Assembly: GCA_964395885.1 (NCBI GenBank)
Contig: CAYNDS010000004.1
Location: 1 to 50,243, forward strand
Source: an uncultured Solibacteraceae bacterium
Lineage (GTDB): Bacteria > Acidobacteriota > Terriglobia > Bryobacterales > Bryobacteraceae
Reading direction: 5' to 3'
DNA: 50,243 nucleotides
Of this stretch, positions 21,540-50,243 are shown piece after piece. How positions within the stretch are numbered: position 1 is the first letter of the stretch; each line of letters opens with the position of its first letter. Under the pieces are notes generated by a model, which saw nothing but the letters and a program-made list of their open reading frames with translations, ran no database searches and had not been told where the DNA came from. Position numbers and translations under genes: made by a program.

Positions 21540-21557
21540 GACGAAGGGAGCGGTGCC

Positions 21558-21854: not shown

Positions 21855-21857
21855 CCG

Positions 21858-23846: not shown

Positions 23847-23891
23847 GATGGGCAGGATGCCCGATCACGGCGGGCGAAAACTACTGAAGGG

Positions 23892-25658: not shown

Positions 25659-25680
25659 GATCGATGCTCCTAGACGTGAC

Positions 25681-32849: not shown

Positions 32850-32860
32850 GACGTCCTCCT

Positions 32861-33568: not shown

Positions 33569-33578
33569 GAAATCTCCT

Positions 33579-34814
33579 TCAGTCTTCGTGATCGATTGGC
33601 ATGCGGGGCGGAGAGGCGGGCGGCGCGACATCGCTGGGAAGTGCGCGACCGACGCGCCGCATTTCGGAAGTGGCGCCAGCACCACCGCCGTTTCGCGGAG
33701 GGGCGGGAGGATCGGGCTGTGTTCGGTTTGCGGACGTTCCGCCTGCGGCGGGACTCGACGGCGGGGGCGGCGCGCTACTGCGTTGTGAGACGGCGGACAG
33801 TTCGCTTGCGCCGGTCGCTTGCCCACTCAACGCATTCCCCACGGCGGTTAAACCGGACGTGGCTCGCGCGCCCAAAGCATAGACGCCCGATGCAGCGGCG
33901 GCTCCCGCAATGGCGACACCCGTGCCCATGCCGATCAGGTCGCCGCCGGTGAGCGCGGGCGAGCCACCGAGCACGGACGAGCACAACTTCGGCACCTGCC
34001 AGCAGAGCGTCATGTAGATCAGCGAGGCGGCCATGATGTCCAAAGCGCTCATCGCCGGATTCGCAGAGTTGCCGACGCCCTGCGCCTCGGTCATCCAGCC
34101 GACGCCCAGGCCCAATCCGCCCGCGATCAGACAGTAGAGCACCAGAATGCGGACGCCCACGCCGACGGCCAGCGCCAGGTACCTCTCGACGTAGGGTGCG
34201 GTCCAGCGCGAGCCGCCGAAGCCGAGGAATACGTACCCGACCGACACCACGATGTAGCTCTCGACCATCGTCATGATGAAGTTGATCGTGATCACCGCGT
34301 AGGAGATGACGATCAGCAGCGCGGCGAAAGCCAGCGCGAAGGACGACCCTGGATTAGTAAAGAACGCCGACGTACTGGCAGCGTCGAGGAGTCCGCCCGC
34401 AATGGACAGCCCTTGCGCGAAGATTTTACTGGGCGACAAGGGCGCACCGAGTCCGGCGGCGGTGGAACCGAGAATTTCGAAGCTCTCAATGATCGCCGGA
34501 ATCCACGTGGATCCGTTCACCAGTAGCGCGTAGAAAGCGCCGATCCACATGATCTTGCGAATCAGGGCAGAGGTCCACGATTGCAGGTCCGTCTTCTCCA
34601 GCACCATCACCGCGGCACTCCAGGCGAACTCGATCACGGCGAGGGTCCCAAACAACCGGTTTGCGTGCTGCCAAATCCCGGTGGTCCACAGGACACGGGA
34701 CGCCTGAAACTGGTCGAGGATGTCGCCCGGCTTCGTTGTCGAGTAGCTTTGCGCCAGTGCTGCGCCGGCGACACTCAGCAGAACGAGGGCCAGGCGAATG
34801 AGGAGTCGCGTCAT
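33579..34814 (-). CDS. trbL: Conjugal transfer protein TrbL (VirB6 family)
   Basis: It has a signal peptide, multiple TM helices and a Pro/Ala-rich C-terminal tail, and sits after trbJ/K. Confidence 0.9.
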   Translation of the reverse strand: MTRLLIRLALVLLSVAGAALAQSYSTTKPGDILDQFQASRVLWTTGIWQHANRLFGTLAVIEFAWSAAVMVLEKTDLQSWTSALIRKIMWIGAFYALLVNGSTWIPAIIESFEILGSTAAGLGAPLSPSKIFAQGLSIAGGLLDAASTSAFFTNPGSSFALAFAALLIVISYAVITINFIMTMVESYIVVSVGYVFLGFGGSRWTAPYVERYLALAVGVGVRILVLYCLIAGGLGLGVGWMTEAQGVGNSANPAMSALDIMAASLIYMTLCWQVPKLCSSVLGGSPALTGGDLIGMGTGVAIAGAAAASGVYALGARATSGLTAVGNALSGQATGASELSAVSQRSSAPPPPSSPAAGGTSANRTQPDPPAPPRNGGGAGATSEMRRVGRALPSDVAPPASPPRMPIDHED

Positions 34815-34844
34815 GCGGCACCCCCGAAGTGCGTGCGAGGGCAG

Positions 34845-35174
34845 TTAGTGGATGCCTGGCCGGAACGTGCGATCGTCACCCTTGGCTGGCGCGCTGTTGA
34901 AGAACGCCACCGTGCGAGCGGCTGCGCACAACCGGCCCTCCGTCGTGTCGCCCCAGTTAGCGGGTGCGGACTGCCGCTTGGGACCGCAGAGCGCATCGAT
35001 CTCGCGAGACACGGCTTTGTGCTGACCCAGCCAAGCGGCCATGGACTGCGTGCTGGCCGTGGACAACTCGCCCGCGCCCGCCTTTTGCGCATGTTCCACG
35101 ATCGCGCTATGCTGCTGCCGACCGCATCCGGCCAGTGCCAGCGCGATGAGGCCGATCCAACAATACTTCGACAT
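34845..35174 (-). CDS. Small lipoprotein in the trbK position (candidate entry-exclusion protein)
   Basis: It has the lipobox LALAGC and is 109 aa long. It lies between trbJ and trbL, where TrbK or alternative TrbK proteins sit in P-type systems. Confidence 0.6.
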   Translation of the reverse strand: MSKYCWIGLIALALAGCGRQQHSAIVEHAQKAGAGELSTASTQSMAAWLGQHKAVSREIDALCGPKRQSAPANWGDTTEGRLCAAARTVAFFNSAPAKGDDRTFRPGIH

Positions 35175-35220
35175 CTCAGGTCACCTGCCATCACCATACT
35201 CCCGCGCGCCTCGAATCGCA

Positions 35221-35937
35221 CTACTTCGTCCCCGGTCGAAAGGTTCTTCCGTCACCTTCGGCGGGCGCACTCTTGAAGAAACGTTCAGAAGCGGCCTCCG
35301 CCGCGGCCTTTTCTTGGACGATGGCCGCCTGGAACGCCTGCTTGCTGGAAAGGTCAGCCATCATCAACTCGCGCAACTTCATTAGCTGCTGCACCTGCTG
35401 TTCGGCGACTTGCCCCATCACCTGGAGAGCCTGCATTCTCCCGTCGGAGGATGCGGCCATGGCTCGTAGCGAATCCAGTACCGCTTGCTCGTCCTTCAGT
35501 TGAGCGCCTTGCAGACCCGCCGCTCGGAGCGCGCCCAAGGTTGTATCCATGCTGGTCTGTGCCCAGCCCTTGTAGTGCGTGTAGTACGAGCCCGGAGTGT
35601 GCGCATAACCCTTGTAAATGGCTTTGAACTGCGCATCCAGACCGGCCATCGAGTACGCGAGGGCCATGCCGCCCTGAACCACGCCCGCGAGATCGTCGAT
35701 GTCCTTCTGGATCGGGCCGAAGATCTGAACCGGCAGGTTCTTCACGTTGCGTAGCATGTCGGCGTACTGCTTGGCCTCTTCGGCTAACTGCATGCCCTGA
35801 CGGATGTACTGCATGACCAACTGACCGTTGTTCAGGAGTTGCGTCAACTCCGTTGCGAATGCTCCGCCGTAAGCAGGCTGAGGGGCGTGTGAGGCTAGAC
35901 CCACGAAAAGTGTGGTCGCGATTACGCGCTTGTACAT
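35221..35937 (-). CDS. trbJ: Conjugal transfer protein TrbJ (VirB5-like)
   Basis: Starting at ATG 35935-35937 gives a signal peptide (MYKRVIATTLFVGLASHA). The helical or coiled-coil protein of ~238 aa overlaps the trbE stop by 16 nt. Confidence 0.85.
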   Translation of the reverse strand: MYKRVIATTLFVGLASHAPQPAYGGAFATELTQLLNNGQLVMQYIRQGMQLAEEAKQYADMLRNVKNLPVQIFGPIQKDIDDLAGVVQGGMALAYSMAGLDAQFKAIYKGYAHTPGSYYTHYKGWAQTSMDTTLGALRAAGLQGAQLKDEQAVLDSLRAMAASSDGRMQALQVMGQVAEQQVQQLMKLRELMMADLSSKQAFQAAIVQEKAAAEAASERFFKSAPAEGDGRTFRPGTK

Positions 35938-38360
35938 TGCGTTTTCTCCTTCAACGTTTCGAAGTAAGTGGCCCACTTCGCAAGTCCCTTGTGGCGCAGC
36001 CACTCTTCGCGCCAAACTTCGCCGAACTGTTCGGCGATGGACTCCGCAAGTTGACGCTCTTCACGCCCATTCACTCCGACAAACGCCAGCCCGACCTGTC
36101 CCAGCCCGAGGTCAACCATTCGGCGGCCCAACTTGCTGACCACGTAGTAGTGCTGCTTCGGGATTGCGACTTGGAGCAGGTCCAACTCGCGGTCATTCAG
36201 GCCGATGCGTTCGTAGAGTTCGCGCATGCCTGGCGTTTTGCACTCGGCGTTGGGCAGCAATACCTTAGTCGGGCAGTTCTCCAGAATGACGTCGGAGATG
36301 TTCGACGTGGCGACATCGCTGATCTGCTGCGTCGCCATCACGACGGCGGCATTCTTGCGGCGAAGCGTCTTGAGCCATTCGCGCAGCCGCTCCCGAAAGA
36401 GTCCGTGCTGCAGGTAGGACCAGGCTTCGTCAAGGAGAACGAGCGTCGGCGAACCGTCCAACCGCTGCTCGATGCGCCGGAAAAGGTATAGGAGAACCGG
36501 GACGACCGCCTTGTCGTCCAGTTGCAGCAGGTTCTCCATTTCGAAGGCGAGGAATCGGCCGGAGCCGAGCATGTCCTCGTCGGCGTCGAGCAAGGAACCC
36601 ATCGGACCCGCCACGGTGAAGTGCTGCAGGGCCTCGCGAACTTCCGGATCTTGGATGTTGGCGCTAAGCTCCGTTAGTGTGCGTGAGGGCGACAGACGCA
36701 GGTGCTGTACTGCCTGTGTCAGCGCGTTGCGGTGCTTCGGCGTGACCTTTAGGCCGTTCAGAATGCAAAGCGCCTCCGCCCACCCGACGGCCCACGTGAC
36801 ATGGGCATCGGAGTCGATGTGGCGAAGTGGGCAGAAGGCCAGATCGGTTTTCGGTCCGGCCAGGTCGTAGAACTCGCCACCCGCCGCGCGGTTCAGCATC
36901 CACATGGAATAGCCGCGGTCGAACGCGAACACTTGCGCGTTCGGATAGCGGAACCACTGCGCCGCGAAGAGCCCCAAGCAGGTGGACTTGCCGGCCCCGG
37001 ACGGCCCGAAGATCATCGTGTGGCCCACGTCTGATACGTGCAGGTGGAAGCGGAACGGCGTGGCTCCGGTGGTTGCGGCATACAACAGCGGCGGCGACTT
37101 TCGCGGCATCAAGGCCGAGGGGTTGTCACGCAGGCCCGCCCACACCGAAGTGGTCGGGAGAAGATCGGCGAGGTTCAACGTGTGAAGCAGGACTCGCCGC
37201 ACGTTTCGATACCCATCGCCGGGCAGTGTGCCGCGCCAGGCTTCGATCGCGTTGACGGTCTCCAGTCGGCAGGAGAAGCCGAGGTTCTGGATCGTCTTCA
37301 TCACTTGGCGAACACTGTCGCGAAGAGGCTCCTGGCTCTCGTCCAGGCAGACGATGTTCGCCGAGTACTGAGCGAACTGGACGTCCCCCGACGCGGCGAT
37401 CCCCATGGCATCCTCCGCGTCGACTGCCATCGCCTGCGCGTGGACGTTGATCGGGCCGCTCTCGCTTTTGAAGATCTGATCCTTCCAGCCCCGAATCTTT
37501 GAGCGCCACTTTTTTCGGTGCTTGTCGAGCAGCCCCCGCGCCTCCTCGGGATCCAGCAGGATTGCTCGTGTGTTGAAGCGGTACTCCAGCGGGAGCGTGT
37601 CTAACTCGCGGAGGATCCCGGGTGAACTGACACGAGGGAATCCGTCGATCGCAACGACGGCAATGAACTTCGCGCCAATGCTCGGCTCGATCCCGCCGCG
37701 GAAGTCTCCGCAGGCCAGCACGTCATTCAGGTACGCGGGAACCTCCGGCGTGGCAAAGGGAAAGTCCTCACCGCCGATGCATCTGCGCCAGAAGCGCAGC
37801 AGATCATTGAAAGAGTCCTGGGAACGGAGGCGTTCGACATGGAACAGATGGCCGAAGGTGTTCTCGAAGGCGTCGAGCTGCGTCTTAAATCGCTCTAGGG
37901 CTTGCGCACCGGCAGCGCGTTTGGCGGCTCCGTTGCGGCCATCGATCAGCCAGCCACGCGCCCGCTCTTCTGCCTCGACCGGCGGCAGATAGGTGAGGGT
38001 GAGGAAGTACTCCGACTCGAAGTGCGCACCCTCGGCCATGAACTGCTCGCGACGCTCGTCGTCAATCAGTCGGGTAACCGGGTCGGGAAACGCGCCCCGG
38101 TCCGGGTAACCCGGCGCACGGCTGCGAATCGCGTCGCACTGAACCATCCAACCGCTGCCCAGTCGCAATGCCGAGTTCAGCCGGGCACTCAAAGCATCCA
38201 TTTCGGCCGCAGCCGCGGACATCATGTCCGGACCGCGATAGCTCCAGGCGGCGAGGAGCGATCCGTCCTGCTGCAACAGAATGCCGTCGTCCACCAAGGC
38301 GAACGGCAATAAGAGATCGGCCAAGCCACGCGCCCGCGACCGATGTTCCCGCACCTGCAT
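35922..38360 (-). CDS. trbE: Conjugal transfer ATPase TrbE (VirB4 family)
   Basis: It has Walker A (GPSGAGKST) and Walker B (LVLLDEAW) and is ~812 aa from ATG 38358-38360, 2 nt after the trbD stop. The longer listed ORF overlaps trbD. Confidence 0.9.
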   Translation of the reverse strand: MQVREHRSRARGLADLLLPFALVDDGILLQQDGSLLAAWSYRGPDMMSAAAAEMDALSARLNSALRLGSGWMVQCDAIRSRAPGYPDRGAFPDPVTRLIDDERREQFMAEGAHFESEYFLTLTYLPPVEAEERARGWLIDGRNGAAKRAAGAQALERFKTQLDAFENTFGHLFHVERLRSQDSFNDLLRFWRRCIGGEDFPFATPEVPAYLNDVLACGDFRGGIEPSIGAKFIAVVAIDGFPRVSSPGILRELDTLPLEYRFNTRAILLDPEEARGLLDKHRKKWRSKIRGWKDQIFKSESGPINVHAQAMAVDAEDAMGIAASGDVQFAQYSANIVCLDESQEPLRDSVRQVMKTIQNLGFSCRLETVNAIEAWRGTLPGDGYRNVRRVLLHTLNLADLLPTTSVWAGLRDNPSALMPRKSPPLLYAATTGATPFRFHLHVSDVGHTMIFGPSGAGKSTCLGLFAAQWFRYPNAQVFAFDRGYSMWMLNRAAGGEFYDLAGPKTDLAFCPLRHIDSDAHVTWAVGWAEALCILNGLKVTPKHRNALTQAVQHLRLSPSRTLTELSANIQDPEVREALQHFTVAGPMGSLLDADEDMLGSGRFLAFEMENLLQLDDKAVVPVLLYLFRRIEQRLDGSPTLVLLDEAWSYLQHGLFRERLREWLKTLRRKNAAVVMATQQISDVATSNISDVILENCPTKVLLPNAECKTPGMRELYERIGLNDRELDLLQVAIPKQHYYVVSKLGRRMVDLGLGQVGLAFVGVNGREERQLAESIAEQFGEVWREEWLRHKGLAKWATYFETLKEKTQCTSA

Positions 38361-38362
38361 CG

Positions 38363-38683
38363 TTACCGCCACCTCATCGGGGTTTCCAGGCTTGCGGCAT
38401 GCAAGCCGCTCTTCGCCGGGTAGTACGCGGCGTAGCGAATGTGCCGCAGATAGATCGGACGCAACATTGGGTCCGCAGCGCCCATGCGTTGGAGCACCGC
38501 CGTTGCGCCCACCCAGAATGCCGCCGCCAAACCGACGCCCCACCACGACGCGAGGCTGAAGCCCAGCGCCACGACGACTAGCGCCGCGATCAGCACCAAC
38601 TCGCGGTCTCCGCCAAGGATGAGATTGGGACGGTTTGCGGACTGGTGAATGACGAGCTCGCGCGGTTTGACGGCAGTTTGCAT
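38363..38683 (-). CDS. trbD: Conjugal transfer protein TrbD (VirB3-like)
   Basis: The ~106-aa product (…LVIHQSANRPNLILGGDRELVLIAALVVVALGF…) has a hydrophobic hairpin. It lies between trbC and trbE, starting at ATG 38681-38683. Confidence 0.85.
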   Translation of the reverse strand: MQTAVKPRELVIHQSANRPNLILGGDRELVLIAALVVVALGFSLASWWGVGLAAAFWVGATAVLQRMGAADPMLRPIYLRHIRYAAYYPAKSGLHAASLETPMRWR

Positions 38684-39042: not shown

Positions 39043-40071
39043 CTAGACGTGCTCGATCACGTACCGCCCGTCGCGGTAGTCGTGGACGAGTAGAACTTCG
39101 CGGACCTTTCGGCCCGCTGGCAAGGAGCTTTCCTCGTCCACGAAGACGACCAAGTCCACGGCGGCGGCGATTAAGCTTTGCTGTGGAGCGGTGGTTGCCT
39201 CCGCGACCAGGCTCTCCAATCGGATCAGCCCGCTGAGGGCGTCATTGGCGTGTATGGTGGCGATGCCACCGGGATGGCCCGTGTTCCAGGCCTTCAGTAG
39301 CGTGTGGGCTTCCGCGCCGCGAACTTCGCCTACTACGATGCGATGGGGTTTCAGGCGCATCGACGCCCGGAGGCAGTCGAGCATCGTCACTTTCCCAACG
39401 GCACGCAGGTCGACAAAGTTCTTCACGGCGCATTGCAGTTCAGTTGTGTCCTCGATTACAATCACGCGGTCAGACGGCGTCTCCTCGCTGAAGACATCAA
39501 GGATGGCGTTGACCAACGTGGTTTTCCCGCTGCCGGTGGAGCCGACGATCAGGATGTTCTTGCGGGCGCGCACCGCCGCCCGAATCACTTCGGCGTGCGA
39601 AAGGCCGCGGACGAGCAGTCCGAAGTCGTCCCGCCGCCGCCGTGCGTTGAGAGGGTCCTCGCCCCGCGTCAGGATGCCGCTTTGCTCATACTCGGCGAGT
39701 CGGAAGATGCGTTTCGGTCGGAGCCGGATGGCAAACACCGGCGATCTGACGACGGGAGCGGTGAGGCCTTCAAAACGGCTACCGTCGAGGGGCAGTTCCG
39801 TTTCGAGAATCGGGTTTTCGGCGTTGATGAAGCAGTCGCGAGCCGCCGCGATGGTTTGCATCGCCGTGAGCGCCTGCTGAGGCGGCAGCGTGTCCACGGC
39901 TTCGAACGGCTCTCCCATGCGCTTGATCCAAACGGAGCTATCGGGATTGAGTAAGATATCTTCCGCGCGAGGGTCTGCCAGTAGCTTGAGTATTCGGTCA
40001 CCAAGCTCGCGCCGTAACTTCACCTCCAATCTTTCTTTTTTCTCGAAATTCGCGATGTCCGCTACCGGCAT
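39043..40071 (-). CDS. trbB: Conjugal transfer ATPase TrbB (VirB11 family)
   Basis: It has Walker A (GSTGSGKTT), Walker B (VIVIEDTTEL), the His-box region (IVVGEVRGAEA…TGHPG), and is first in the trb operon. Confidence 0.9.
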   Translation of the reverse strand: MPVADIANFEKKERLEVKLRRELGDRILKLLADPRAEDILLNPDSSVWIKRMGEPFEAVDTLPPQQALTAMQTIAAARDCFINAENPILETELPLDGSRFEGLTAPVVRSPVFAIRLRPKRIFRLAEYEQSGILTRGEDPLNARRRRDDFGLLVRGLSHAEVIRAAVRARKNILIVGSTGSGKTTLVNAILDVFSEETPSDRVIVIEDTTELQCAVKNFVDLRAVGKVTMLDCLRASMRLKPHRIVVGEVRGAEAHTLLKAWNTGHPGGIATIHANDALSGLIRLESLVAEATTAPQQSLIAAAVDLVVFVDEESSLPAGRKVREVLLVHDYRDGRYVIEHV

Positions 40072-40207
40072 ATTGACCTTTTGAGTGGCTGTGATATTCT
40101 GCTTTCGTTAGTCAAGCTATCGAGCAGCCCATCTCTCCCCTTCGCGATCTATGGGCCTGTCCTAGCTACAACGGGACACCCGATTCGAACGAATCCTGGA
40201 GAGTGGT

Positions 40208-40827: not shown

Positions 40828-41568
40828 ATGGCAGCGGACGACAGCCCGGAGCAGCGTTACAACCGGGCAATGCGGGCCGTGCAGGAGTCGATCCTCCGGG
40901 AGTTTCCTAACCCCGAGCGCAAGGGGTGTCCTGGCGACGCGGCGATTCGAGACCTGGTTCGGAACCGCTACAGTCACGGGGGCGGCGAGGTTTGGGAGCA
41001 CGTGACCCACTGCTCGCCCTGCTACCGCGAATACGTGAACTTGCTGGCGCTGGCGGAGCGGCCCAAGCGCCTTCCCCAGTTCGCGGCGATTGCAGCGGGC
41101 CTAGTGATCGTGTTCGCGATCGGCTTCTGGGCGCGTGGGTGGTGGGCCGGCCAGTCCCCCGTAGAGCAGCGACCTCCGCTTGTACAGAAGAGCCCAGAGC
41201 TGCCAAAGCAGCCACAAGTCCTCGCGGCGGTTCTGAACCTGCAAGATCTCTCGCCAACGCGCGGAGGTGATTCGGCTGCAGGAACGCTACAGCGGATTCC
41301 ACGCGCGGATGTGTCGCTGACCATCTATCTGCCGCGCGGAAGCGAGCCGGGCCGGTACTCGGTGGAGGTGCGGCGACGACCAGACTCGACCGAAGCGGTG
41401 GTTCGGAGTGAGGGTAGTGCTTCGATTCAGAACGGATTGACGATTCTGGTCGTGCGGTGCGACCTGAGCAGCGTGCCTCCCGGGAGGTACGTAGTTGCGA
41501 CACGCGGACCGGGAGAGAGTTGGAGACCCTACTCGGTCGCCATTGAGGCGGTCTCCCGTGCGAACTGA
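40828..41568 (+). CDS. Zinc-finger (HxxxCxxC) anti-sigma-factor-like membrane protein
   Basis: It has the HVTHCSPC motif at ~aa 60, a single TM (FAAIAAGLVIVFAIGFWARGWW), and a ~140-aa extracytoplasmic beta-rich domain. Confidence 0.55.
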   Translation: MAADDSPEQRYNRAMRAVQESILREFPNPERKGCPGDAAIRDLVRNRYSHGGGEVWEHVTHCSPCYREYVNLLALAERPKRLPQFAAIAAGLVIVFAIGFWARGWWAGQSPVEQRPPLVQKSPELPKQPQVLAAVLNLQDLSPTRGGDSAAGTLQRIPRADVSLTIYLPRGSEPGRYSVEVRRRPDSTEAVVRSEGSASIQNGLTILVVRCDLSSVPPGRYVVATRGPGESWRPYSVAIEAVSRAN

Positions 41569-41806: not shown

Positions 41807-44800
41807 GTGATCGAACATCCCGGCGCACTAATCAGAAGAGAAATCCTTCCCGCGATCTCCGTATCCGAAGCGGCCCGTGTGCTGGGAATAGGACGGCCGG
41901 CGCTCTCCAGCCTCCTCAATGGAAGAGCTGCACTTTCGTCCGAGATGGCAGCAAGGCTGGAAAGGGCATTTGGGGCTGATGCCAAAAAACTCTTGAAGTT
42001 ACAGGCCGATTACGACCAAAGCAAACGGCGCCATCGAATTGCCGCTTTGGCGATCACACCCTATGTGCCGCCATTCCTCAAGATCACTGCGGATCAGATT
42101 AGCCGATGGGCTACCACCATTACAGCTCGCTCTACGTTCCCCGTACTTCTCCGGAGGCTTGTGAATTCGACCGGGCGCTCTGTTACGTTCGTTGATTTTC
42201 CTGGATACGACATGGCGGAGAGGCCTGGCTGGGACGGGAGAGTCGAGTGCACGGCCCCGACACAATGGTTACCCTGTGGCGTCTCGTGCTGGGAGCTAGG
42301 GTGCAGCTCTGACCCCGGGAGGAAGGCCCGTAGCGATTACGAGAAGCGGACTAGGGAGGTTCCTCCCGGTGAAAGGCGCAAGGCTCACTTCGTCTTCGCA
42401 ACGCCACAGATCTGGAGAGACAAACAGAGGTGGGTGGACGAGATGCAAGCATCAGGCGAGTGGCGCTCTGTGAGAGCCTATGACGCCAATGATCTGGAGC
42501 ACTGGCTTGAGCAGTCTCTCCCAGCTCAGAGGTGGCTTGCCGAGCAGCTAGACATCCCACAGGATGGCGTCTATTCCCTCGAGGATCGGTGGCGTGACTT
42601 TGCTCTGCAAAGTACTCCGCCCTTGACACATCGGCTCTTCGACTCCGCCGTTCTTCGCTTTCGGTCTCTGGTCTTGGATTGGATATCCAGTCCGGATCCA
42701 CAAAAACTACTTGTAGCTGCCGACTCGAGAATTGAAGCACTAGCGTTCCTCTTCTGCCTATTCGAGCAAGAAGATTTCCACCAGTGCAGAGACCGAATTC
42801 TTGTCTTTTCCTCTGGTCCAGCACTGAAGAGGCTGACAACGCCTGAGCCGCCGTTCATCCCTGTGGTTTTCACAGACGAAGCGGAGCGTGCCCTATCCAA
42901 TGAGTACAACGGAAAACACGCAGTTATAGTACGGCACAAGCTTGCACCGTATTGCGAGCCAGCGATCACTCTTGACGTGCTTGACAACGAAGGGTTTCGG
43001 AAGGGGCTGGAAGCAATGGGGATAACGGACCATCTTGAAATTGACAAACTAGGCCGTGAGTCCGGCTATTCCCCCACGATCCTCCGTCGGCGCCTCTCTA
43101 CCGTCCCGGCAATCCAAACGCCTACCTGGGCGAAGGATGCAGAAACAGCACGCCGACTGATTCCGATGATGCTCGCTGGAGCCTGGAACGTTGAGCTTCA
43201 GGGTGACCGTGAGGCTATCGAGTCTCTGAGCCAGCAATCGGCCGACCAAATCGAAGCGACGGTTGCCGAGTTCCTGCAGCTGGAAGACTCACCGATCTGG
43301 CGATCCGGCTATTCTCGCGGCGTTGCGTCGAGGCGTGACGCTCTCTTCGCAGTGGCACCTTACCTTACAAGGAACCATATCCAAACGTTCACTTCGATCG
43401 CATACTCAGTCCTGGCCGAAGCTGATCCCACCTTGGAGCTGTCAGATGACGAGAAACCGTTCGCGGTGCTTTACAACAAGTCTCGTCTTCATTCTGATTC
43501 CCTCCGACGAGGATTATGCGTGAGCCTAGCGCTCTTGCACATTCACGGAGGAGACGTCCTGCAGCGACAGACAGGCTATGACCCTCGCCGGGACGTCGAA
43601 TCGCTTATCCGCCGCCTTCTGACGCCGCTCACGCCAGACCTGTTGTACTCACAGCAGGACCTTCTACCGCTTTACGCGGAAGCGGCTCCCGAGACGCTAC
43701 TGGCAATAATCGAAGATGACCTTGGATCTGTGGCTCCAGCCACTTACTCGCTAATCTGCCGAGGGAGCTCAGGAGTCTTCGGAAGCTGTCCTCGGAGCGG
43801 TCTTCTCTGGGCCCTAGAGGTACTTGCCTGGGATCCACTTCTCTTCTCACGGGTGTCCCTTATCCTTGCCCAGCTCGCTACGCTGCCGCTTCTGGACAAC
43901 TGGAGCAATACAGCGTTCAATAGCCTCGCAGCTGTGTTCAGGTTCTGGATGCCACAGACGACCGCAGACGTGAGCGCTCGGATTAAAGCCCTAGAAGTTG
44001 TTGTTCACCGATTCCCCGTTATTGGCTGGAAGCTGTGCATTGCGCAGCTAGCATGTTTTCTTCAGACCGGTACCTACAGCAGCCGTCCGAAGTGGCGACA
44101 GCTTTCTAAGGGCGCTGGTCACCCAATATCCAGTACTCATGAACGGGATGTGTTCCGGCGGAAGGCGCTGGACCTTGCTCTCGGCTGGGCGACACATGAT
44201 GAACACACGTTGGGCGACTTGGTGGCTACACTCAATGGTCTTTCGGAGGCTGACCAGACAGCCATATGGGACCAGATCGACAGGTGGGCCATGGAAGAAA
44301 AGGACGACAAGCGAAAGGCAGCACTCCGGGCGCAGATCCGACTCTTAACAGTTCGAATGTCGCGGGAACAGGATTCGATTGAGTCCAAAAGTCGGGCGCG
44401 ATCTGCATACGAAGCACTGGCACCGACAGATCCATCGATTGGTCATGCATGGCTCTTCGAGAATCACTGGTTAGCCTACTCCTACCAGGAACTGCAGGAA
44501 GGCCCAATTGAGCACTTGGAACGCGACGCGAAGGTCGAATCTGCAAGGCGAGCCGCCCTGTCCGAGATCTGGCAAATGAATGGTGCTGTAGGAGTCAAGT
44601 CGCTCGTAGAGACTGCCAACTCACCATTCACCGTTGGGTCAACCTTGGCGTGTTTAAAGAATGCCTTAGACCTCGAGGCGCTTCTGCTACAGCTGTTGGA
44701 CGAAAAGGACCCGGTGAAGGCCTCCAACATCGACGAGGCGATTCGGGGGCTTCTCGCGCGATTAAATCCACAGGAGCGCCTTCCGTTGATCGATGGCCTG

Positions 44801-45844
44801 ATACATCGCTCACCGACTGACGCTATTCGTCGGATTCTCAGAAGCTCGCCGTTTGGACGGGAAACGTGGAAGCGTGTTGCGAGCCGTGGTGCCGCGGTAG
44901 AGCAGCAATACTGGCGCGAGATCCACCCAGGAAGACTGGGAGATGACCGTGCAGAGCTGAATGACGCAGTCGACTGCCTGTTGGCCGCTCGAAGGCCCAG
45001 GGCGGCTTTCTACTGTGTCGAGTTCGCTCTAGAACATGTCGAGACTTCTCGGTTGCGACGTATCGTTTACGAGGTGCGAACGGTGAACGAGGAAGAGCCC
45101 GGAACATATCTGGTGGAGGCATACCATCTTTCTCAGGCTCTCGACATACTGCAAACCCGCGAAGACATTAGTGAGGAGGAGATGGCGAGTCTCGAGTTTC
45201 TGCATGTGGATGCTTTAGAACATCAGAAGCACGGCATCCCAAATCTCGAGAAGCAGTTGTCAAGGTCGCCTGCGCTGTTTGTTCGAGCCTTGGCGCTTGC
45301 GTTCGGTCGCGAAGACGGTAAGACCGATCCTCCCGAGTGGGGGCAAGTAGGTGAGGCTAGCGGCCTCCTGGCACACCGCCTCCTTCGGAATGTAAAGCGG
45401 ATTCCAGGTGCGAGCGATCGCGACAGTTGCATCAATAAGGACGCTCTGCGTACATGGGTTAGCGAATCTCGATCACTCGCTGCAGCTCATGGCAGAGCAG
45501 ACCGCGGCGATGAGTATATCGGGATCATCCTGTCGGCCTCCCCCACTGGCGAGGATGGAATCTGGCCATGTGTGGAGGTCCGCGAGGTTATTGAGGAAGC
45601 ACACAGCTACCACCTTGGCCGCGGAGTCCTTGTTGGTGTTCAGAGCTCATTCGGCGTTTATATCCGCCACGAGGGGGGGACACGAGAGAGACAGCTTGCT
45701 TCAAGGTATCAGCACTGGGCTGATGACTTGCTGGCCGAATACCCCCACACTTCCGAGGTTGTGCGCCGAATATCGCGGTCCTACGAGGACCAGGCGCGCA
45801 GAGAAGAGTTATCAGTGACGGCAAGCAGACGGCTTCGAAGTTGA
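41807..45844 (+). CDS. 1345-aa protein: N-terminal HigA/Xre-type HTH fused to a very large uncharacterised, mostly alpha-helical region
   Basis: Residues 1-75 (MIEHPGALIRREILPAISVSEAARVLGIGRPALSSLLNGRAALSSEMAARLERAFGADAKKLLKLQADYD) match the HigA antidote HTH pattern. The remainder has no P-loop or other motif I can name. The GTG start lies one codon after an in-frame stop, so it is fixed. Confidence 0.8.
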   Translation: MIEHPGALIRREILPAISVSEAARVLGIGRPALSSLLNGRAALSSEMAARLERAFGADAKKLLKLQADYDQSKRRHRIAALAITPYVPPFLKITADQISRWATTITARSTFPVLLRRLVNSTGRSVTFVDFPGYDMAERPGWDGRVECTAPTQWLPCGVSCWELGCSSDPGRKARSDYEKRTREVPPGERRKAHFVFATPQIWRDKQRWVDEMQASGEWRSVRAYDANDLEHWLEQSLPAQRWLAEQLDIPQDGVYSLEDRWRDFALQSTPPLTHRLFDSAVLRFRSLVLDWISSPDPQKLLVAADSRIEALAFLFCLFEQEDFHQCRDRILVFSSGPALKRLTTPEPPFIPVVFTDEAERALSNEYNGKHAVIVRHKLAPYCEPAITLDVLDNEGFRKGLEAMGITDHLEIDKLGRESGYSPTILRRRLSTVPAIQTPTWAKDAETARRLIPMMLAGAWNVELQGDREAIESLSQQSADQIEATVAEFLQLEDSPIWRSGYSRGVASRRDALFAVAPYLTRNHIQTFTSIAYSVLAEADPTLELSDDEKPFAVLYNKSRLHSDSLRRGLCVSLALLHIHGGDVLQRQTGYDPRRDVESLIRRLLTPLTPDLLYSQQDLLPLYAEAAPETLLAIIEDDLGSVAPATYSLICRGSSGVFGSCPRSGLLWALEVLAWDPLLFSRVSLILAQLATLPLLDNWSNTAFNSLAAVFRFWMPQTTADVSARIKALEVVVHRFPVIGWKLCIAQLACFLQTGTYSSRPKWRQLSKGAGHPISSTHERDVFRRKALDLALGWATHDEHTLGDLVATLNGLSEADQTAIWDQIDRWAMEEKDDKRKAALRAQIRLLTVRMSREQDSIESKSRARSAYEALAPTDPSIGHAWLFENHWLAYSYQELQEGPIEHLERDAKVESARRAALSEIWQMNGAVGVKSLVETANSPFTVGSTLACLKNALDLEALLLQLLDEKDPVKASNIDEAIRGLLARLNPQERLPLIDGLIHRSPTDAIRRILRSSPFGRETWKRVASRGAAVEQQYWREIHPGRLGDDRAELNDAVDCLLAARRPRAAFYCVEFALEHVETSRLRRIVYEVRTVNEEEPGTYLVEAYHLSQALDILQTREDISEEEMASLEFLHVDALEHQKHGIPNLEKQLSRSPALFVRALALAFGREDGKTDPPEWGQVGEASGLLAHRLLRNVKRIPGASDRDSCINKDALRTWVSESRSLAAAHGRADRGDEYIGIILSASPTGEDGIWPCVEVREVIEEAHSYHLGRGVLVGVQSSFGVYIRHEGGTRERQLASRYQHWADDLLAEYPHTSEVVRRISRSYEDQARREELSVTASRRLRS

Positions 45845-46011: not shown

Positions 46012-47259
46012 TCAGCGATGGACGTGAGCTGAGGCTTGTTCTAGTTGATCATCAATAGCCCTTGCCAAATGTTCAGGAATCTGATCCACACGTTCATTCG
46101 GTTCGACGCCCTTTCCCTCGACCGGTTGCCCCTCCGACGTGAACCAGGCCGCGATCGGAATCCGCAGGCGATAGCCGGACGGCAGTGTGAAATTCGCGCC
46201 GCCCAGCACCTCTCCCGCGGATGGTTCACCGATGATCGTTGCGAGACCATTCGCCTTCGCAAAAGTAGTCACCATCTCCGCCGCGCTGTGCGAGAACCGG
46301 TTCTGCAATACAGAAATGCGGCTGTGGAATGGCTGCTGGCCGAGCCCCTCGGTCACCAAGCGCATGGACCGGTCTCGGTTCAGCAGTAGAAATCGGAGCG
46401 CCAAAGGTACCGCGCCCAGCTTGCTGTCGGGAACTTTGTCGATGCTGGGGAGGGAGTCCGGAGAAGCGGTGGCGCGCTTTCGTGTCAGGGTGTAGCCCAC
46501 CAAGCGCTTGTCCGGACAGAACAAGCTCATCAGCCGAAGCGAGCCTAGGCCGCCACCTACGTTTCCTCGAAGATCGACGACCAGGCGCTGGCAACCATGG
46601 CGGTTCAAGTCTTGTAAGGCCTGTCCGAGTGCTTTGACGAAGTCCAGGCCAACGGCCCCCGGAAATCGCGCGACCCGGAGGTAGCCAACGTCTTTTGAGA
46701 GCATCTTGTGACTGATTGCGCGCGGCTGAATGTTCGTTTGGCCTTTGATCGGGAGTCCGCCGGCCTGGATGCTGACAAGGCGGGTGGTTCCGTTCGGAAA
46801 TAGCCGGGTCGTCAATTCGTGAACCTTTCCCGCTCCCCAGAGCGGCGGTTTGTCGGTGGCGAGCGGCTTGCCATCTACGGCAACCAGCACCTCGCCCGGT
46901 TTCAGACCCGCACGGGCGGCAATACCTTCGTCGAGCACATCCCAGAACAACCATTCGAACCCTCGCGGACTCTCAATCCGGCGCAGCGTCGCGTGAAGTG
47001 CATGCGCGGTGGGCACGCCTTGGCCACTAGGAGCGATGAGGGCCGTATGGCTGGTCCCGAGCACGCCGAGGAGGTTCGCCACGCCAAGTTCGAAGTCCTG
47101 ATCGGTCTTTGTCGCGGTCAGGCCCGCCGACTGGTCGTCCACAAGCGCCGCCCAATTGTCGTAGGATCGCGTCGGATTGCGCGGATCGATGTGTCTCTCG
47201 ATGACGAGCGCCCGGACCGCGCCGAGGATGGCGGCTTTCTCTTCATTGCTTAGGCTCAT
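46012..47259 (-). CDS. S41-family peptidase with PDZ domain; no signal peptide, so cytoplasmic
   Basis: It has a PDZ segment (GLKPGEVLVAVDGKPL), VVDLRGNVGGG, and the nucleophile motif FSHSAAEM (Ser codon at 46285-46287). A strong AGGAGGGG SD precedes it and its start overlaps the CHAT gene stop by 17 nt. Confidence 0.85.
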   Translation of the reverse strand: MSLSNEEKAAILGAVRALVIERHIDPRNPTRSYDNWAALVDDQSAGLTATKTDQDFELGVANLLGVLGTSHTALIAPSGQGVPTAHALHATLRRIESPRGFEWLFWDVLDEGIAARAGLKPGEVLVAVDGKPLATDKPPLWGAGKVHELTTRLFPNGTTRLVSIQAGGLPIKGQTNIQPRAISHKMLSKDVGYLRVARFPGAVGLDFVKALGQALQDLNRHGCQRLVVDLRGNVGGGLGSLRLMSLFCPDKRLVGYTLTRKRATASPDSLPSIDKVPDSKLGAVPLALRFLLLNRDRSMRLVTEGLGQQPFHSRISVLQNRFSHSAAEMVTTFAKANGLATIIGEPSAGEVLGGANFTLPSGYRLRIPIAAWFTSEGQPVEGKGVEPNERVDQIPEHLARAIDDQLEQASAHVHR

Positions 47260-49840
47260 GACCCCTCCTGCTTGTCAAGGGACGGCTCCCCTCGCCTTCG
47301 AGGATGAAGCCTGCCCAGTAGTACGGCTCCAGCTTTGGCCCGAACTTCCGCATCAACTCCCGCTTTGCCAAGGCGAGCGCCTCCGATGGCGGCCGTCCCG
47401 CGCCGAGGTTTCGGTAGAACGAACGCATCAGGGCCAACGTGAACGTATCGTCGACCGGCCACAGCGTCGACACCACCGCCTGCGCACCGGCGAGCAGGAA
47501 CGCTCGGGAGAGGTTCGCAATTCCCTCTTGGCCCTGCAACCGGCCGACTCCGGTGTCACATGCCGACAGGACTACCAGGCGAGCAGTCGTTCGCCACTGG
47601 CCGATCTCGGCTACGTCCAGGATGCCGTCGTTGCCGTTTTTCGGATCGGGTTGGAGCAGAACAGCGGCGCGGTCCGGCGAGACCTCGTCAGCGTGGCCAT
47701 GGGCGGCAATGTGAATGATCGAGAAATCTCTGGCGAGCGCTTCTTGCAGCACTCGTTCGGTTGCTTCAGCGCCCACAATGGCTCGGCTTCGTTGCGGACG
47801 ATAGAACTGCGCAGCCGCTACGGCCTCATCCCGCGACGCCGGTATGTTGCCCCAGCCCTCCACAGTCATCCCGCGCGCGCTGGCCAGCTTCGCCGTGTTC
47901 GCACTGTAAGGAACGCCGCCGAGAGCAAACACGCCGCCAATGACCGGCAGCCGCTTCTCGGATCGCAGCAAGTGCAAGATGCTGGCCGACGGGATGAACG
48001 AGACATCGCGAGTTTCCGCCAGCAGCCGTCCACGACTGTCTTGGAGGGTGTCGAACGGAAGGCTGTGCAGCACGCCATCCCGCGCAATCACGACGTGTCG
48101 GTAAGTGGGGGCAGAGGCCTCTGCGGGCAAGAGTATCTTCGATAGCCGCCGAGTACTCGTCGAACGCTTTGCCCTAATGCCCGAGCGGAGTTGCTCGATC
48201 TGCTCCGCGATTTCGGCGGCCTCGTCGACTCGGTCCAGGCGGACCGCCGCTCGAGTGATCGTGAACCGGTACAGGTCCCTTGCCGAAACGACGAAGGCTA
48301 ACAGCAATTCCTCAGGTTCCAAGGTTTGTTGAACGTCCGCTAACGCGACCGGTGTCGAAGCGATTCGGCTACGCGCATCCGGTGGGGCGATCCAGCGTCG
48401 CTGATCTTCGTAGAAGATCGCGTCCTGGATCGAGTGGCGCTCCGCCCGTGTTCTGGCCGTGACAAGCGCGAGGCGTAATCTGCTGACGCGCCGGTCGATG
48501 CTCGGATCGGAGTCCTGCTGCTTCGCGCCTGCCGCGAGCAAGTCGCGCATGGCTCGCGCTCGGATCTGCTCCATCACGGAGAAGGCGCGGCCCGAATCCC
48601 GTAGTTGACCGGCAAGCAAGGCGAAGTGCTCAGTATGCAACTCGCCGAATTGGCTGACCAGCGAAGTGCGCACCGCGAAGTTGGGGTTGCTGTCGATCAA
48701 GCCGGAGATGATCGCTTCACCACGGTCGTAGGTGGCATCGGCGGCTTGCCAATCTCGGCGCGCTGATTGCAACTGGGCCAGGGTGAGCAAGCGACGGGGC
48801 ACGAGGTAGACCTCCGAAGCGTCCGAGACACTGTCCAGCCCTTGTGAGATTTGCGCCTCTGCTTCGTCCAGCCGGTTACTTTTGCGATACAGGTCCGCAA
48901 GGTCAAAGCGGGCGGCCAGGGCAAGTCGAGGGAAGCCGCCTTCCTGCGCGATGTTCACGGCGAGTCGCAGTCGCTCCTCCCCTTGATCCACCCGGCCCGT
49001 CGCGGCACTCACGTCCGCCAAGGTGATCAGCGTCTGAGCCTCCTTAATCTTTCTCTTGAGCCGACGGGCCTGCGAGAGGATGTCAGCTCCGATCGCTTCC
49101 GCGGCGTCGAACTGGCGAGTCTTGCGGAAGGCCGCCAACCGAGCGGTCGGCAAAGGAAAGTAGTAGCCCATTTCCGGTGCAGCCGCGATCGCTTTTTCCG
49201 CCTTGGCAAGGTACGGGAAAGCCTGCTCGGGCATTTTCCCCAACGCGAGCGAATTGGCAATCGCCGAGAGGAATCGCACGAGTGCAGGAACGTCGCGGGA
49301 GCGTTCCGCCGTCACCAACGCCCCGGCGACGAGTTGACGGGCAGTGACAACATCGCCGAGGACGAACGAGGCTAGGCCGATTTCGCCCGAAGCTCGACTC
49401 GCTAAGCGATGATCGCCGGCGTCTGTAGCCAGTTTGCGCACTTCTTCCCAATCGCGCTTCATCGTGGCGGCATCGATTTCGCCGTGTACGTCGCCTCTGG
49501 CCGCTAGGCAGAAAACGCGTGCCGTCACAGCTTCCGAAGGTAGACCGTCGAGGACCGCGGTGAGCTGGTCGACAACATCGGATAGCTGTCGCCGCTCCAT
49601 GGTGGCGCGCAGCAGCCCGCACTTTGCGGTTGCAACGTCACCGGGCTTCGCCTCCGATGGCGACGCTTTCAGGGCTGACTGGAAGCCTACCTCTGCATCA
49701 GCCCAGTTGTAGGCCGCTGCCGACGTTATCGCCTGATCCAACGAGCTGCAATCGCCCGCCGAGAGCATCGCCATCGACGCCAGCGCCATCCCGATTAGCC
49801 GTCCGCAATCCCTTGCCGCTGGGGAGGTTTTCGTGGACAT
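47243..49840 (-). CDS. TPR-repeat + CHAT (caspase-like Cys protease) domain protein
   Basis: The C-terminal CHAT domain has the His/Cys dyad IIHIAAHGH (His codon 47699-47701) and VVLSACDTG (Cys codon 47558-47560). About 500 aa of TPR-like repeats lie upstream. I chose ATG 49838-49840, which gives a signal-like N-terminus (MSTKTSPAARDCGRLIGMALASMAMLSAG); ATG 49789 is an alternative. ORF codons above 49840 are the antisense shadow of the repB-like gene. Confidence 0.8.
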   Translation of the reverse strand: MSTKTSPAARDCGRLIGMALASMAMLSAGDCSSLDQAITSAAAYNWADAEVGFQSALKASPSEAKPGDVATAKCGLLRATMERRQLSDVVDQLTAVLDGLPSEAVTARVFCLAARGDVHGEIDAATMKRDWEEVRKLATDAGDHRLASRASGEIGLASFVLGDVVTARQLVAGALVTAERSRDVPALVRFLSAIANSLALGKMPEQAFPYLAKAEKAIAAAPEMGYYFPLPTARLAAFRKTRQFDAAEAIGADILSQARRLKRKIKEAQTLITLADVSAATGRVDQGEERLRLAVNIAQEGGFPRLALAARFDLADLYRKSNRLDEAEAQISQGLDSVSDASEVYLVPRRLLTLAQLQSARRDWQAADATYDRGEAIISGLIDSNPNFAVRTSLVSQFGELHTEHFALLAGQLRDSGRAFSVMEQIRARAMRDLLAAGAKQQDSDPSIDRRVSRLRLALVTARTRAERHSIQDAIFYEDQRRWIAPPDARSRIASTPVALADVQQTLEPEELLLAFVVSARDLYRFTITRAAVRLDRVDEAAEIAEQIEQLRSGIRAKRSTSTRRLSKILLPAEASAPTYRHVVIARDGVLHSLPFDTLQDSRGRLLAETRDVSFIPSASILHLLRSEKRLPVIGGVFALGGVPYSANTAKLASARGMTVEGWGNIPASRDEAVAAAQFYRPQRSRAIVGAEATERVLQEALARDFSIIHIAAHGHADEVSPDRAAVLLQPDPKNGNDGILDVAEIGQWRTTARLVVLSACDTGVGRLQGQEGIANLSRAFLLAGAQAVVSTLWPVDDTFTLALMRSFYRNLGAGRPPSEALALAKRELMRKFGPKLEPYYWAGFILEGEGSRPLTSRRGHEPKQ

Positions 49841-50243
49841 GGCACAGGCGGGATTGCGAAGGACGATATCGGCTGTCGAGCGGCAGATTGGAGCAATGGG
49901 CTGCGCTTCATACGAAGTCGGCCTACTGTCGTCGCGGGAGAACCAAGCAGCAGCGATGTTGCTCCGTACCTGGACTGCCGAAGAGGTCCTACGAGCGGTG
50001 CCCTGGATGCGCCACCAAAACGCGGCTGGACGCCATGTGTACATACGGCCCGCTGGTGAGCACGCATTGACCTTGGTCGACGATTTGAGTGTGCCGGCCT
50101 TGACTGCGTGCACGAAGTCGGGCGTCGACTTCGCGGCGATTATCGAGACGTCCAAGGACAACTTCCAGGCCTGGCTCAAGCACGACCGAACGCTCTCGAA
50201 GGACCTCAGCAGTGCAGTTGCCAAGGTGGTGGCGCGAGAACTC
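49839..50243 (+). CDS. RepB-primase-domain protein (ICE/plasmid replication-mobilisation type), 5' part only; open at the window end
   Basis: The frame is open from ATG 49839 (or GTG 49833) to the edge and is preceded by GGGGAGG. It translates to MAQAGLRRTISAVERQIGAMGCASYEVGLL…WTAEEVLRAVPWMRHQNAAGRHVYIRPAGEHALTLVDDLSVPAL…AAIIETSKDNFQAWLKH. This is the hallmark pattern of RepB'-type primase domains. Confidence 0.7.
   Translation, partial: MAQAGLRRTISAVERQIGAMGCASYEVGLLSSRENQAAAMLLRTWTAEEVLRAVPWMRHQNAAGRHVYIRPAGEHALTLVDDLSVPALTACTKSGVDFAAIIETSKDNFQAWLKHDRTLSKDLSSAVAKVVAREL

Follow-up and report, generated by a model that had tools for sequence, protein, structure and literature searches.

In Escherichia coli, the anti-sigma factor RseA is cut by DegS, then by RseP and then by ClpXP, and in the cell-surface signalling of Pseudomonas, Prc acts as the site-1 protease. 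In Myxococcus xanthus, the anti-sigma factor DdvA is composed of a cytoplasmic CHCC zinc anti-sigma domain, one transmembrane (TM) helix, a flexible linker and a periplasmic part of about 900 residues with tetratricopeptide repeats (TPR) and a CHAT protease domain (PMC11506125). The authors of that study proposed that CHAT makes the site-1 cut in the linker in trans, that RseP acts next and that unnamed 'cytosolic proteases' finally clear away the cytoplasmic domain, and that this proteolysis releases DdvS, by which a CBASS/CRISPR island is switched on (PMC11506125). DdvA was described as the sole characterised anti-sigma factor with TPR-CHAT and as narrowly distributed (PMC11506125). In the type III-E Craspase, Cas7-11 together with the TPR-CHAT protein Csx29 cleaves Csx30, leading to release of the sigma factor CASP-sigma (PMC10028731). 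Here we describe a pair of adjacent genes, coding for a TPR-CHAT caspase-like protease and a PDZ-S41 peptidase, in a stretch of 50,243 nt from an uncultured Solibacteraceae bacterium of the Acidobacteriota (assembly GCA_964395885.1, contig CAYNDS010000004.1, positions 1 to 50,243; the whole of this stretch is referred to as the window).

In related genomes this CHAT-S41 pair is linked to genes for a sigma-like protein and a membrane-bound anti-sigma-like protein, a partnership that points to the regulated proteolysis of an anti-sigma factor. We propose that the pair forms the proteolytic half of a four-component switch of extracytoplasmic-function (ECF) sigma and anti-sigma factor, carried by an integrative conjugative element (ICE) and resembling DdvS/DdvA in a split form. 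The probability of this reading is estimated at about 0.45, somewhat short of even.

Linkage of the CHAT-S41 pair to sigma-like and anti-sigma-like genes

In the window the CHAT and S41 genes overlap by 17 nt, and a Shine-Dalgarno sequence, AGGAGGGG, ends 2 nt before the S41 start codon. The overlap and a strong Shine-Dalgarno sequence had already been noted by a first-pass annotation made from the letters alone, which took them to imply co-expression in fixed stoichiometry. Relatives were collected by BLAST and HMM searches from 62 genome loci, nearly all in metagenome-assembled genomes (MAGs) of Acidobacteriota (Terriglobia, Bryobacterales and 'Acidoferrum'), together with the contexts of the encoding contigs; the loci, numbered below with the prefix L, were recovered by an alignment-based scan of genome contigs, a scan with the single S41 protein giving no relative. 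The S41 relatives number in the hundreds and are full-length, with 415-435 aa and 46-50% identity. For the count of adjacency, 54 non-redundant loci with at least 2.7 kb of upstream DNA were used, including as positives L037 and L043, which the distance filter had missed. The CHAT gene was located immediately upstream of the S41 gene in 50 of these, over a range of S41 identity from 36 to 99% and within differing flanks, the two genes being separated by 3-12 nt or overlapping. The remaining four loci carried an intact solitary S41 gene (L038) or S41 remnants or distant homologues (L062, L067 and L068). The adjacency exceeds chance, and the tight coupling of the two genes is conserved. In the open-access literature, no paper was found that joins 'CHAT domain' with the terms for S41 or carboxy-terminal processing proteases (CTPs), nor one on CHAT, sigma factor and Acidobacteria that describes the pair, in agreement with the first-pass statement that no such pair was known.

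Linkage to other genes was determined for 43 loci with enough flanking DNA, using a limit of 10 kb and including HMM search. An anti-sigma-like gene was found within this distance of the CHAT-S41 pair in 31 loci (about 72%), in two arrangements. In 15 loci, the genes for the sigma-like protein (about 190 aa), the anti-sigma-like protein (about 250-270 aa), CHAT and S41 are aligned in this order as a co-directional operon; in one of these, L002, 4 nt are shared by the anti-sigma-like gene and the start of CHAT. In 16 loci, the sigma/anti-sigma pair is convergent and located downstream of S41, as in the window. The anti-sigma-like protein of the window shares 36% identity (E 1e-22) with the product of the L002 gene that directly precedes CHAT. 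Between S41 and CHAT, pairwise identities co-vary (r=0.88, to which shared phylogeny contributes), and so do those of the anti-sigma-like protein and CHAT (r=0.78); neither value was reached in any of 2000 permutations. These partners, as well as the N-terminal leader of CHAT described below, had been missed in the first-pass annotation.

The anti-sigma-like family is large, with 1227 representatives at E<=1e-3 and at least 499 clusters (50% identity) at E<=1e-10; the best 150 relatives listed are 204-272 aa long and none is fused to CHAT. The motif C-x(23-27)-H-x3-C-x2-C is invariant in 39 aligned sequences and is located N-terminal to one TM segment, the only hydrophobic segment of the protein (median hydropathy of 2.2 for the best 19 residues). 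This CHCC spacing is that of zinc-binding anti-sigma domains such as the one of DdvA (PMC11506125). Beyond the TM segment follow a variable Pro-rich linker, an Arg-Gly dipeptide and a conserved C-terminal domain of about 100 aa. The Arg (residue 145) is present in all 39 sequences and the Gly (residue 146) in 38, in the context [LIV]-[DN]-[LF]-x3-[SAE]-x-x-R-G. By this layout, the 246-aa protein of the window is a putative zinc-binding, single-pass anti-sigma factor, with putative binding of zinc and sigma. The assignment is based on motif and architecture because the matches to known families are so weak: the family profile reached RsiW with no better than E 0.72, Pfam zf-HC2 is discussed below, and a phmmer search of PDB sequences with the window protein gave nothing significant.

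The sigma-like assignment was made through profiles. The profile of the family of about 190 aa (A2) matches residues 21-170, covering sigma2 and sigma4, of the ECF sigma factor SigL of Mycobacterium tuberculosis at E 4e-6, and its members match Pfam Sigma70_r4_2 in eight and Sigma70_ECF in four cases out of 15. The 197-aa protein of the window belongs to a subfamily whose profile (A3) was aligned to A2 by hhalign over 173 columns (96%, E 4.5e-9), the only link of the window protein to sigma factors.

Two irregularities among the related loci are recorded here. The CHAT gene is broken into 2-6 open reading frames (ORFs) in 13 loci with an upstream CHAT (L001, L022, L028, L031, L033-L035, L044, L045, L048, L053, L058 and L063), the S41 gene being usually intact; the breaks could be gene decay or indel errors in long-read MAG assemblies. 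In L051 (positions 1192-11245), two CHAT-S41 pairs flank a single sigma/anti-sigma pair, one of them being divergent, with 31-38% identity to the window proteins, which suggests duplication or recombination between modules.

Predicted location and catalytic residues of the two proteases

The CHAT protein contains about 450 residues of TPR followed by the protease domain, in which the His...Cys dyad of CHAT proteases (PF12770) is present as His714 and Cys761, both invariant in an alignment of 37 distinct relatives. In the S41 alignment (A1, 28 sequences), the segments Ser325-Ala-Ala-Glu, Ser70-His71-Thr72 and RGNxGGG are invariant, the Ser325 motif being aligned with the Ser motif of CtpA. The motifs and codons cited in the first-pass annotation for H714, C761 and S325 agree with arithmetic from the gene starts, and the degeneration of catalytic residues that it had considered was not observed in either family.

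The N-termini of the CHAT relatives carry a short basic stretch followed by 10-15 hydrophobic residues, in many cases with AxA-Q next, as in the leaders MRKLTALGFLLCASLARA followed by QE and MSLRTILISTLLCAALCPSAKA followed by Q; the N-terminus of the window protein is MSTKTSPAARDCGRLIGMALASMAMLSAGD. By hydropathy and inspection by eye, 36 of the 37 relatives showed, before the first TPR, a 12-residue segment whose Kyte-Doolittle value is 1.6 or higher, and in the remaining one, clipped in extraction, the hydrophobic segment is still visible. TPR-CHAT is therefore predicted to be exported and to face the periplasm. The N-termini of the S41 family are hydrophilic (median hydropathy of 0.86 over the first 50 residues), and in the window the S41 reading frame is closed by a stop only 5 codons before its ATG, so that there is no room for a signal peptide. 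The S41 peptidase is predicted to stay in the cytoplasm, as the first-pass annotation had suggested. With Sec-type leaders on CHAT and none on S41, the two proteases would be located on opposite sides of the inner membrane. Export of S41 by Tat hitch-hiking was considered and rejected, an RR motif being present in only some of the CHAT leaders.

The AlphaFold2 model of CHAT, built on an alignment of 14 sequences (pLDDT 84.3), gave as its best two Foldseek matches the structures 8RW5 and 8ROT (E 6.5e-15 and 3.4e-14), both of DdvA (PMC11506125), followed by Csx29 and separase. The global TM-score with DdvA is about 0.3, a low value expected from the long flexible solenoids. The family profile matched a single solved CHAT protein in the PDB, chain B of 8ROT (E 2.7e-9), while phmmer with the window protein alone gave nothing significant among PDB sequences. 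For Csx29, the model NF041237 gave 26.2 bits, below its cut-off of 300. The PADLOC model of BovA (Borvo) matched residues 705-829 of CHAT only (E 8.7e-10), not the full length.

PDZ-S41 enzymes such as Tsp/Prc and the CTPs are proteases that recognise C-termini, with which the titles of the structures matched by Foldseek agree. The S41 model (pLDDT 79.7) matched CtpA, D1P and CtpB (E 1e-21 to 1e-17) and also Prc and CPAF. The curated models of CTPs (S41A; TIGR00225 and the NCBIfam Ctp models) and of CPAF all gave scores far below their cut-offs: 69.6 bits against 218.6 for prc, 35-52 against 525-665 for CtpA, CtpB, CtpC and CtpZ, and 20.9 against 250 for CPAF. By alignment to Pseudomonas aeruginosa CtpA, the position of the catalytic Lys in GKG is taken by Glu350 ('AGEV'), or by Gln in 2 of the 28 sequences, and the enzyme therefore lacks the Ser/Lys dyad, as recognised in the first-pass annotation. 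That annotation had further hinted at a tricorn-like Ser/His subtype. In enzymes of the tricorn and CPAF type, the general base is a His from the N-terminal helical domain, and a Glu follows the Ser by about 58 residues. Tricorn uses Ser965, His746 and Glu1023, and CPAF uses Ser499, His105 and Glu558, a spacing similar to that found here, where Ser70-His71 is invariant and Glu381, 56 residues past Ser325, is conserved in at least 90% of the sequences. However, CtpA also has a His at this motif (DPHS), and the model falls below pLDDT 50 at residues 69-71, where the Ser-His motif is located. An atypical, Lys-less enzyme with a Ser/His mechanism of the tricorn or CPAF type is plausible from these residues.

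The conjugative element and its variable cargo

From about 28.7 kb onward, the window is an ICE with integrase, VirB genes and RepB (Table 1). The boundary of the element is probably at about 27-30 kb, where GC content falls to 0.57-0.60. To the left of it are chromosomal-looking genes, including those for an FMN-dependent dehydrogenase (25960-27150) and a hybrid PAS histidine kinase (17772-19796). Two further ORFs, 19800-22358 (minus strand, 852 aa) and 22428-25673 (plus strand, 1081 aa), match no Pfam family at E<=1e-4; both are overlapped by long ORFs of the opposite strand in high-GC DNA, so that some of these ORFs may not be real.

Table 1. Positions of the genes, domains and residues discussed, in window coordinates
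Feature	Position	Strand	Remarks
Tyrosine integrase	28715-29833		ICE backbone
TrbI/VirB10, CagX/VirB9, VirB8, TrbL/VirB6, VirB4	30386-38546		upstream of VirB11
VirB11-type ATPase	39043-40071	minus	end of the type IV secretion system (T4SS) operon flanking the module; Pfam T2SSE 6.7e-35
Divergent ECF-sigma-like protein, 197 aa	40208-40801	plus	hhalign link to sigma-like family profile
Anti-sigma-like single-pass membrane protein, 246 aa	40828-41568	plus	homologue of the protein directly upstream of CHAT in L002
CHCC zinc motif of anti-sigma-like protein (C34, H58, C62, C65)	40927-41022	plus	alignment of 39 sequences
TM segment of anti-sigma-like protein, about residues 84-104	41077-41139	plus	hydropathy
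Arg145-Gly146 of anti-sigma-like protein	41260-41265	plus	alignment; C-terminal domain of about 100 aa beyond
1345-aa protein with N-terminal HigA/Xre helix-turn-helix (HTH), variable cargo	41807-45844	plus	HTH_3; TIGR02607 2e-16 on residues 4-75
PDZ-S41 peptidase, 415 aa	46012-47259	minus	Pfam Peptidase_S41 (PF03572) 8.4e-29 (100.7 bits, cut-off 24); PDZ_6 1.1e-6
S41 Glu381	46117-46119	minus	
S41 Glu350	46210-46212	minus	position of CtpA Lys
S41 Ser325	46285-46287	minus	
S41 His71	47047-47049	minus	
Overlap of CHAT stop and S41 start, 17 nt	47243-47259	minus	AGGAGGGG at 47262-47269, 2 nt before S41 ATG
TPR-CHAT caspase-like protease	47243-49840	minus	865 aa from ATG 49840; Pfam CHAT 4.1e-60 (204 bits, cut-off 24), TPR_12, TPR_MalT
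CHAT protease domain, residues 563-849	47294-48154	minus	Pfam match limits; His714 47699-47701, Cys761 47558-47560
CHAT N-terminal leader, about residues 1-30	49751-49840	minus	charged n-region, then hydrophobic LIGMALASMAMLSAG; by prediction a Sec-type signal peptide or else a signal anchor, read from sequence
5' part of RepB-primase-like gene	49839-50243	plus	ICE backbone, runs off the window; translation aligns with RepB_primase divergent from CHAT in L071 and L073

The flanks of the related loci are likewise rich in TraG, VirB4, VirB11, RepB_primase, TrwB, CagX, SSB, ParA and integrases. In the closest relatives, L071 and L073, with CHAT 48-49% identical to that of the window, the order is VirB11 (minus), sigma (plus), anti-sigma (plus), a 187-aa gene (plus), RepB (minus), CHAT (plus) and S41 (plus). 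Comparison with this order indicates that the block of RepB and CHAT-S41 (46012-50243 of the window, corresponding to L071:9049-13233) is inverted in the window.

The start of the window CHAT gene is ambiguous. Its reading frame is open to 50224 on the minus strand, giving the ORF 47243-50224, of which the extension to 50224 is non-coding because the divergent RepB-primase-like gene occupies the plus strand there. Translation could begin at ATG 49840 (865 aa), the start taken in the first-pass annotation, or at Met18, at 49789, as in the public annotation (848 aa). The ATG of CHAT, on the minus strand (49840-49838), shares a CATG palindrome at 49838-49841 with the plus-strand ATG (49839-49841) that comes first in the RepB-like gene. 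The RepB-like and CHAT genes are 106 and 49 nt apart in L071 and L073, respectively; the shared CATG would leave no intergenic region for a promoter in the window, where one of the two starts is probably located further in. Upstream of the sigma-like gene, a sigma-70-like site at 40073-40100 was rejected as a candidate promoter, with 2 sites found and 2.1 expected in shuffled sequence.

In the split loci, variable genes on the same strand follow directly downstream of sigma/anti-sigma, and these are often defence systems. In L030 the slot contains HTH-IetA-IetS (E 2e-81 and 1e-74), whereas in L029 it is taken by a reverse transcriptase of the UG19 DRT kind (5e-101), in L015 by type II methyltransferases with an AAA_5 ATPase and in L020 by PDC-S31. 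Fragments of Gabija are located between S41 and the anti-sigma-like gene in L001 and a TIR-APAZ gene of the short-Argonaute type stands beside the module in L002. The pair often adjoins known defence genes, near which the first-pass annotation had suggested testing for enrichment. The HTH-TIR-APAZ gene of L002 (PADLOC Aga_*-PNTD1-PNTD2, E 1e-34) and its 530-aa neighbour, at L002:57-3390, possibly form a short-Argonaute system similar to SPARTA; a Peptidase_U49 (Lit-like) gene is found near the four-gene operon of the same locus (L002:10539-11816). In the closest relative of the window, the slot 3' of the anti-sigma gene holds the 187-aa protein (L071:8497-9060, plus strand; also L072:853-1374), for which no match was found in Pfam, NCBIfam or PADLOC.

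In the window this slot, where GC content is lower (0.57), holds a 1345-aa HTH protein. About 1270 residues past the HTH gave no significant family match, VMAP-M2 being found below threshold only, and PADLOC gave no match. The protein belongs to a family of at least 1573 members of about 1355 aa, with 44-51% identity over the full length, named 'HigA family antitoxin' in the sources; the public annotation starts the window protein 46 residues late, by which the HTH is cut off. As a member of the module it was rejected, since no full-length homologue was present in 70 related loci and only an HTH match of 87 aa was found, in L030.

A proposed proteolytic switch and its comparison with known systems

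The proposed switch would operate as follows. The 246-aa anti-sigma-like protein would tether the sigma-like protein to the membrane through its CHCC-zinc domain in the cytoplasm. The exported TPR-CHAT protein would sense a signal or dock through its TPR array, and its CHAT domain would make the site-1 cut in the periplasmic part of the anti-sigma factor. A candidate cut site is the position after the invariant Arg145, in the context [S/A/E]-x-x-R-G, because separase-type CHAT enzymes cut after Arg (PMC11506125). An intramembrane cut would then be made by a housekeeping protease of the RseP type encoded elsewhere, and the cytoplasmic PDZ-S41 peptidase would bind the newly exposed C-terminus of the anti-sigma remnant and degrade it. 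Once free, sigma would transcribe its targets, among them probably the variable cargo just downstream of sigma/anti-sigma, which is often defensive. That the translation of a periplasmic protease is tightly coupled to that of a cytoplasmic one is understandable if a single transmembrane substrate is attacked by both. This proposal builds on the gene linkage, the predicted topology, the conservation of catalytic residues and the similarity to DdvA, from which we infer every cleavage, the substrates, the signal and the regulon.

Several observations weigh against it. Judged against curated models, the assignments to sigma and anti-sigma factors are weak: Pfam zf-HC2 matches one of 34 anti-sigma-like proteins, at E 0.05; the sigma-like members score 26.4 bits against a TIGR02937 cut-off of 42.9; and the window sigma-like protein by itself has no match in Pfam or NCBIfam. 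The signal peptide of CHAT was judged by hydropathy and by eye, with the start in the window being ambiguous, and the general base of S41 is uncertain, the Lys being missing and the Ser-His motif modelled at pLDDT below 50. In 12 of the 43 loci, no sigma/anti-sigma was found at up to 10 kb from CHAT-S41 by HMM search either, indicating that the pair can occur, and may function, where they are missing from the neighbourhood. The regions upstream of the sigma and CHAT operons showed no promoter motif in common: in a search for ECF-type dyads (5-mer, spacer of 14-19 nt, 4-mer) that covered the upstream regions of 26 sigma genes and of 9 stand-alone CHAT operons, motifs were shared by closely related loci only, and inspection by eye of the three upstream regions of the window revealed no shared promoter. 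Finally, we know of no experimental precedent for a cytoplasmic S41 peptidase acting after RseP.

The CHAT-S41 pair might alternatively be an output of the sigma/anti-sigma system rather than its input, that is, a two-compartment proteolytic effector, serving for example abortive infection or ICE exclusion, over whose expression or activity sigma/anti-sigma would simply have control. When set off, it would act on envelope proteins through CHAT and on cytoplasmic proteins through S41, degrading both. The 12 loci with the pair and no sigma/anti-sigma nearby agree with such an effector, and so do the split loci such as the window, in which the pair has an upstream region of its own, divergent from RepB. 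The location of the pair in islands rich in defence, integrase and T4SS genes also agrees, as does the weak PADLOC match to BovA, which, however, covers a short part of the protein. The co-directional operon of four genes in 15 loci, with its anti-sigma/CHAT overlap, fits partners of one pathway better than a regulator and its target, and the nearest solved relative of CHAT is the sensor and anti-sigma factor DdvA, not a defence effector. On this evidence we regard the effector explanation as unlikely.

A protease cascade or protease-activated effector had been put forward by the first-pass annotation, by analogy with Craspase and NTP-dependent conflict systems; as a cytoplasmic cascade, it would have the two proteases cut one another or share a cytoplasmic target. 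The conserved adjacency and translational coupling, the intact catalytic residues, the relation of the CHAT fold to Csx29 and separase, and the defence genes nearby would all be expected for such a cascade. The Sec-type leaders of the CHAT family and their absence from S41 make mutual cleavage in one compartment unlikely, and the analogy finds no counterpart in the Csx29 score or in the neighbours: neither CRISPR or cas genes, Cas7-11 included, nor an NTPase or vWA-MoxR were found among the conserved partners, which are a sigma-like protein and a membrane anti-sigma-like protein instead. The cascade is accordingly given little credence. Much the same low probability is assigned to an adaptor-protease pair of the NlpI-Prc or LbcA-CtpA type, in which the TPR protein docks substrates for S41 and both act in the envelope, on proteins of the cell wall or of the envelope. 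Cooperation of S41 CTPs with TPR partners is known, the best Foldseek matches of S41 are the CtpA chains of CtpA-LbcA with Prc-NlpI also present, and the gene upstream of S41 does encode a long TPR array; yet signal peptides are absent from the whole S41 family, with no room for one upstream, the Ser/Lys dyad of CtpA and Prc is missing, the scores fall far short of all curated CTP models, the TPR protein has a conserved protease domain of its own, and the linkage to sigma/anti-sigma would be left unexplained.

If the four-component switch is correct, Acidobacteriota would join the organisms in which CHAT proteases are tied to anti-sigma control. With sensor/protease and substrate separate, the role of CHAT as a site-1 protease becomes testable in trans, which is hard with the fused DdvA. 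The S41 peptidase is a candidate for the unnamed 'cytosolic protease' step, which would be the first physiological role for an S41 enzyme with neither signal peptide nor Lys. The presence of the module on ICEs beside a variable defence slot suggests how mobile elements may regulate their defence cargo. A bolder version, which we hold to be doubtful, is a mobile plug-in immune switch: the secreted CHAT would sense envelope attack and cut the anti-sigma factor outside, the cytoplasmic Ser/His S41 would finish the degradation inside, and sigma would activate the defence cargo, be it IetAS, DRT, Gabija, restriction-modification genes or the 1345-aa HTH protein of the window. Such a switch would be a self-contained relay with both specific proteases encoded next to the substrate, giving a first function to a bacterial cytoplasmic S41. 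The components of the module and its logic, with anti-sigma proteolysis and TPR-CHAT sensors, are known. Its split layout, an S41 peptidase that is dedicated, cytoplasmic and Lys-less, and the setting of ICE and defence slot are new.

Among known systems, DdvS/DdvA is alike in the ECF-type sigma (sigma-like by profile here), in a single-pass anti-sigma factor with an N-terminal zinc domain of the CHCC type (at the level of the motif here), in a TPR-CHAT part with His/Cys dyad that is periplasmic (by prediction here) and in the adjoining defence genes. The two differ in that here the anti-sigma and TPR-CHAT proteins are encoded by separate genes in all loci, the former with a small periplasmic domain of its own and the latter with its own predicted signal peptide, and in that a dedicated cytoplasmic S41 peptidase is present; no such enzyme is mentioned in the DdvA paper, where the matches listed for 's41' lie in journal DOIs (PMC11506125). 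The present module is found in Acidobacteriota as ICE cargo, whereas DdvA belongs to Myxococcota. The acidobacterial module looks like DdvA split into a short anti-sigma factor and a free, secreted TPR-CHAT, with S41 added. With the proteolysis of RseA, and with that involving Prc, it would share an anti-sigma factor that spans the membrane, as well as proteases on both sides of the membrane, Prc being the precedent for S41/PDZ. In contrast to these systems, the candidate for site-1 protease is a caspase-like Cys protease and not an HtrA or S41 serine protease, the cytoplasmic S41 would stand in for ClpXP, and a single module carries the genes of the proteases together with that of their presumed substrate.

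Craspase shares the TPR-CHAT architecture (Foldseek E about 1e-13) and the tie between a CHAT protease and sigma factor release, but the module of the window carries no CRISPR genes, and its CHAT protein is predicted to be exported whereas Csx29 is cytoplasmic. The CTPs with TPR adaptors, CtpA-LbcA and Prc-NlpI, have in common with the present pair the S41 fold with an inserted PDZ and a partner with TPR; unlike CtpA and Prc, the S41 peptidase described here has neither signal peptide nor catalytic Lys. With respect to tricorn and CPAF, the invariant Ser70-His71 and Ser325, together with Glu381, may correspond to their Ser/His/Glu sets, while the enzyme is much smaller than tricorn and has no beta-propellers.

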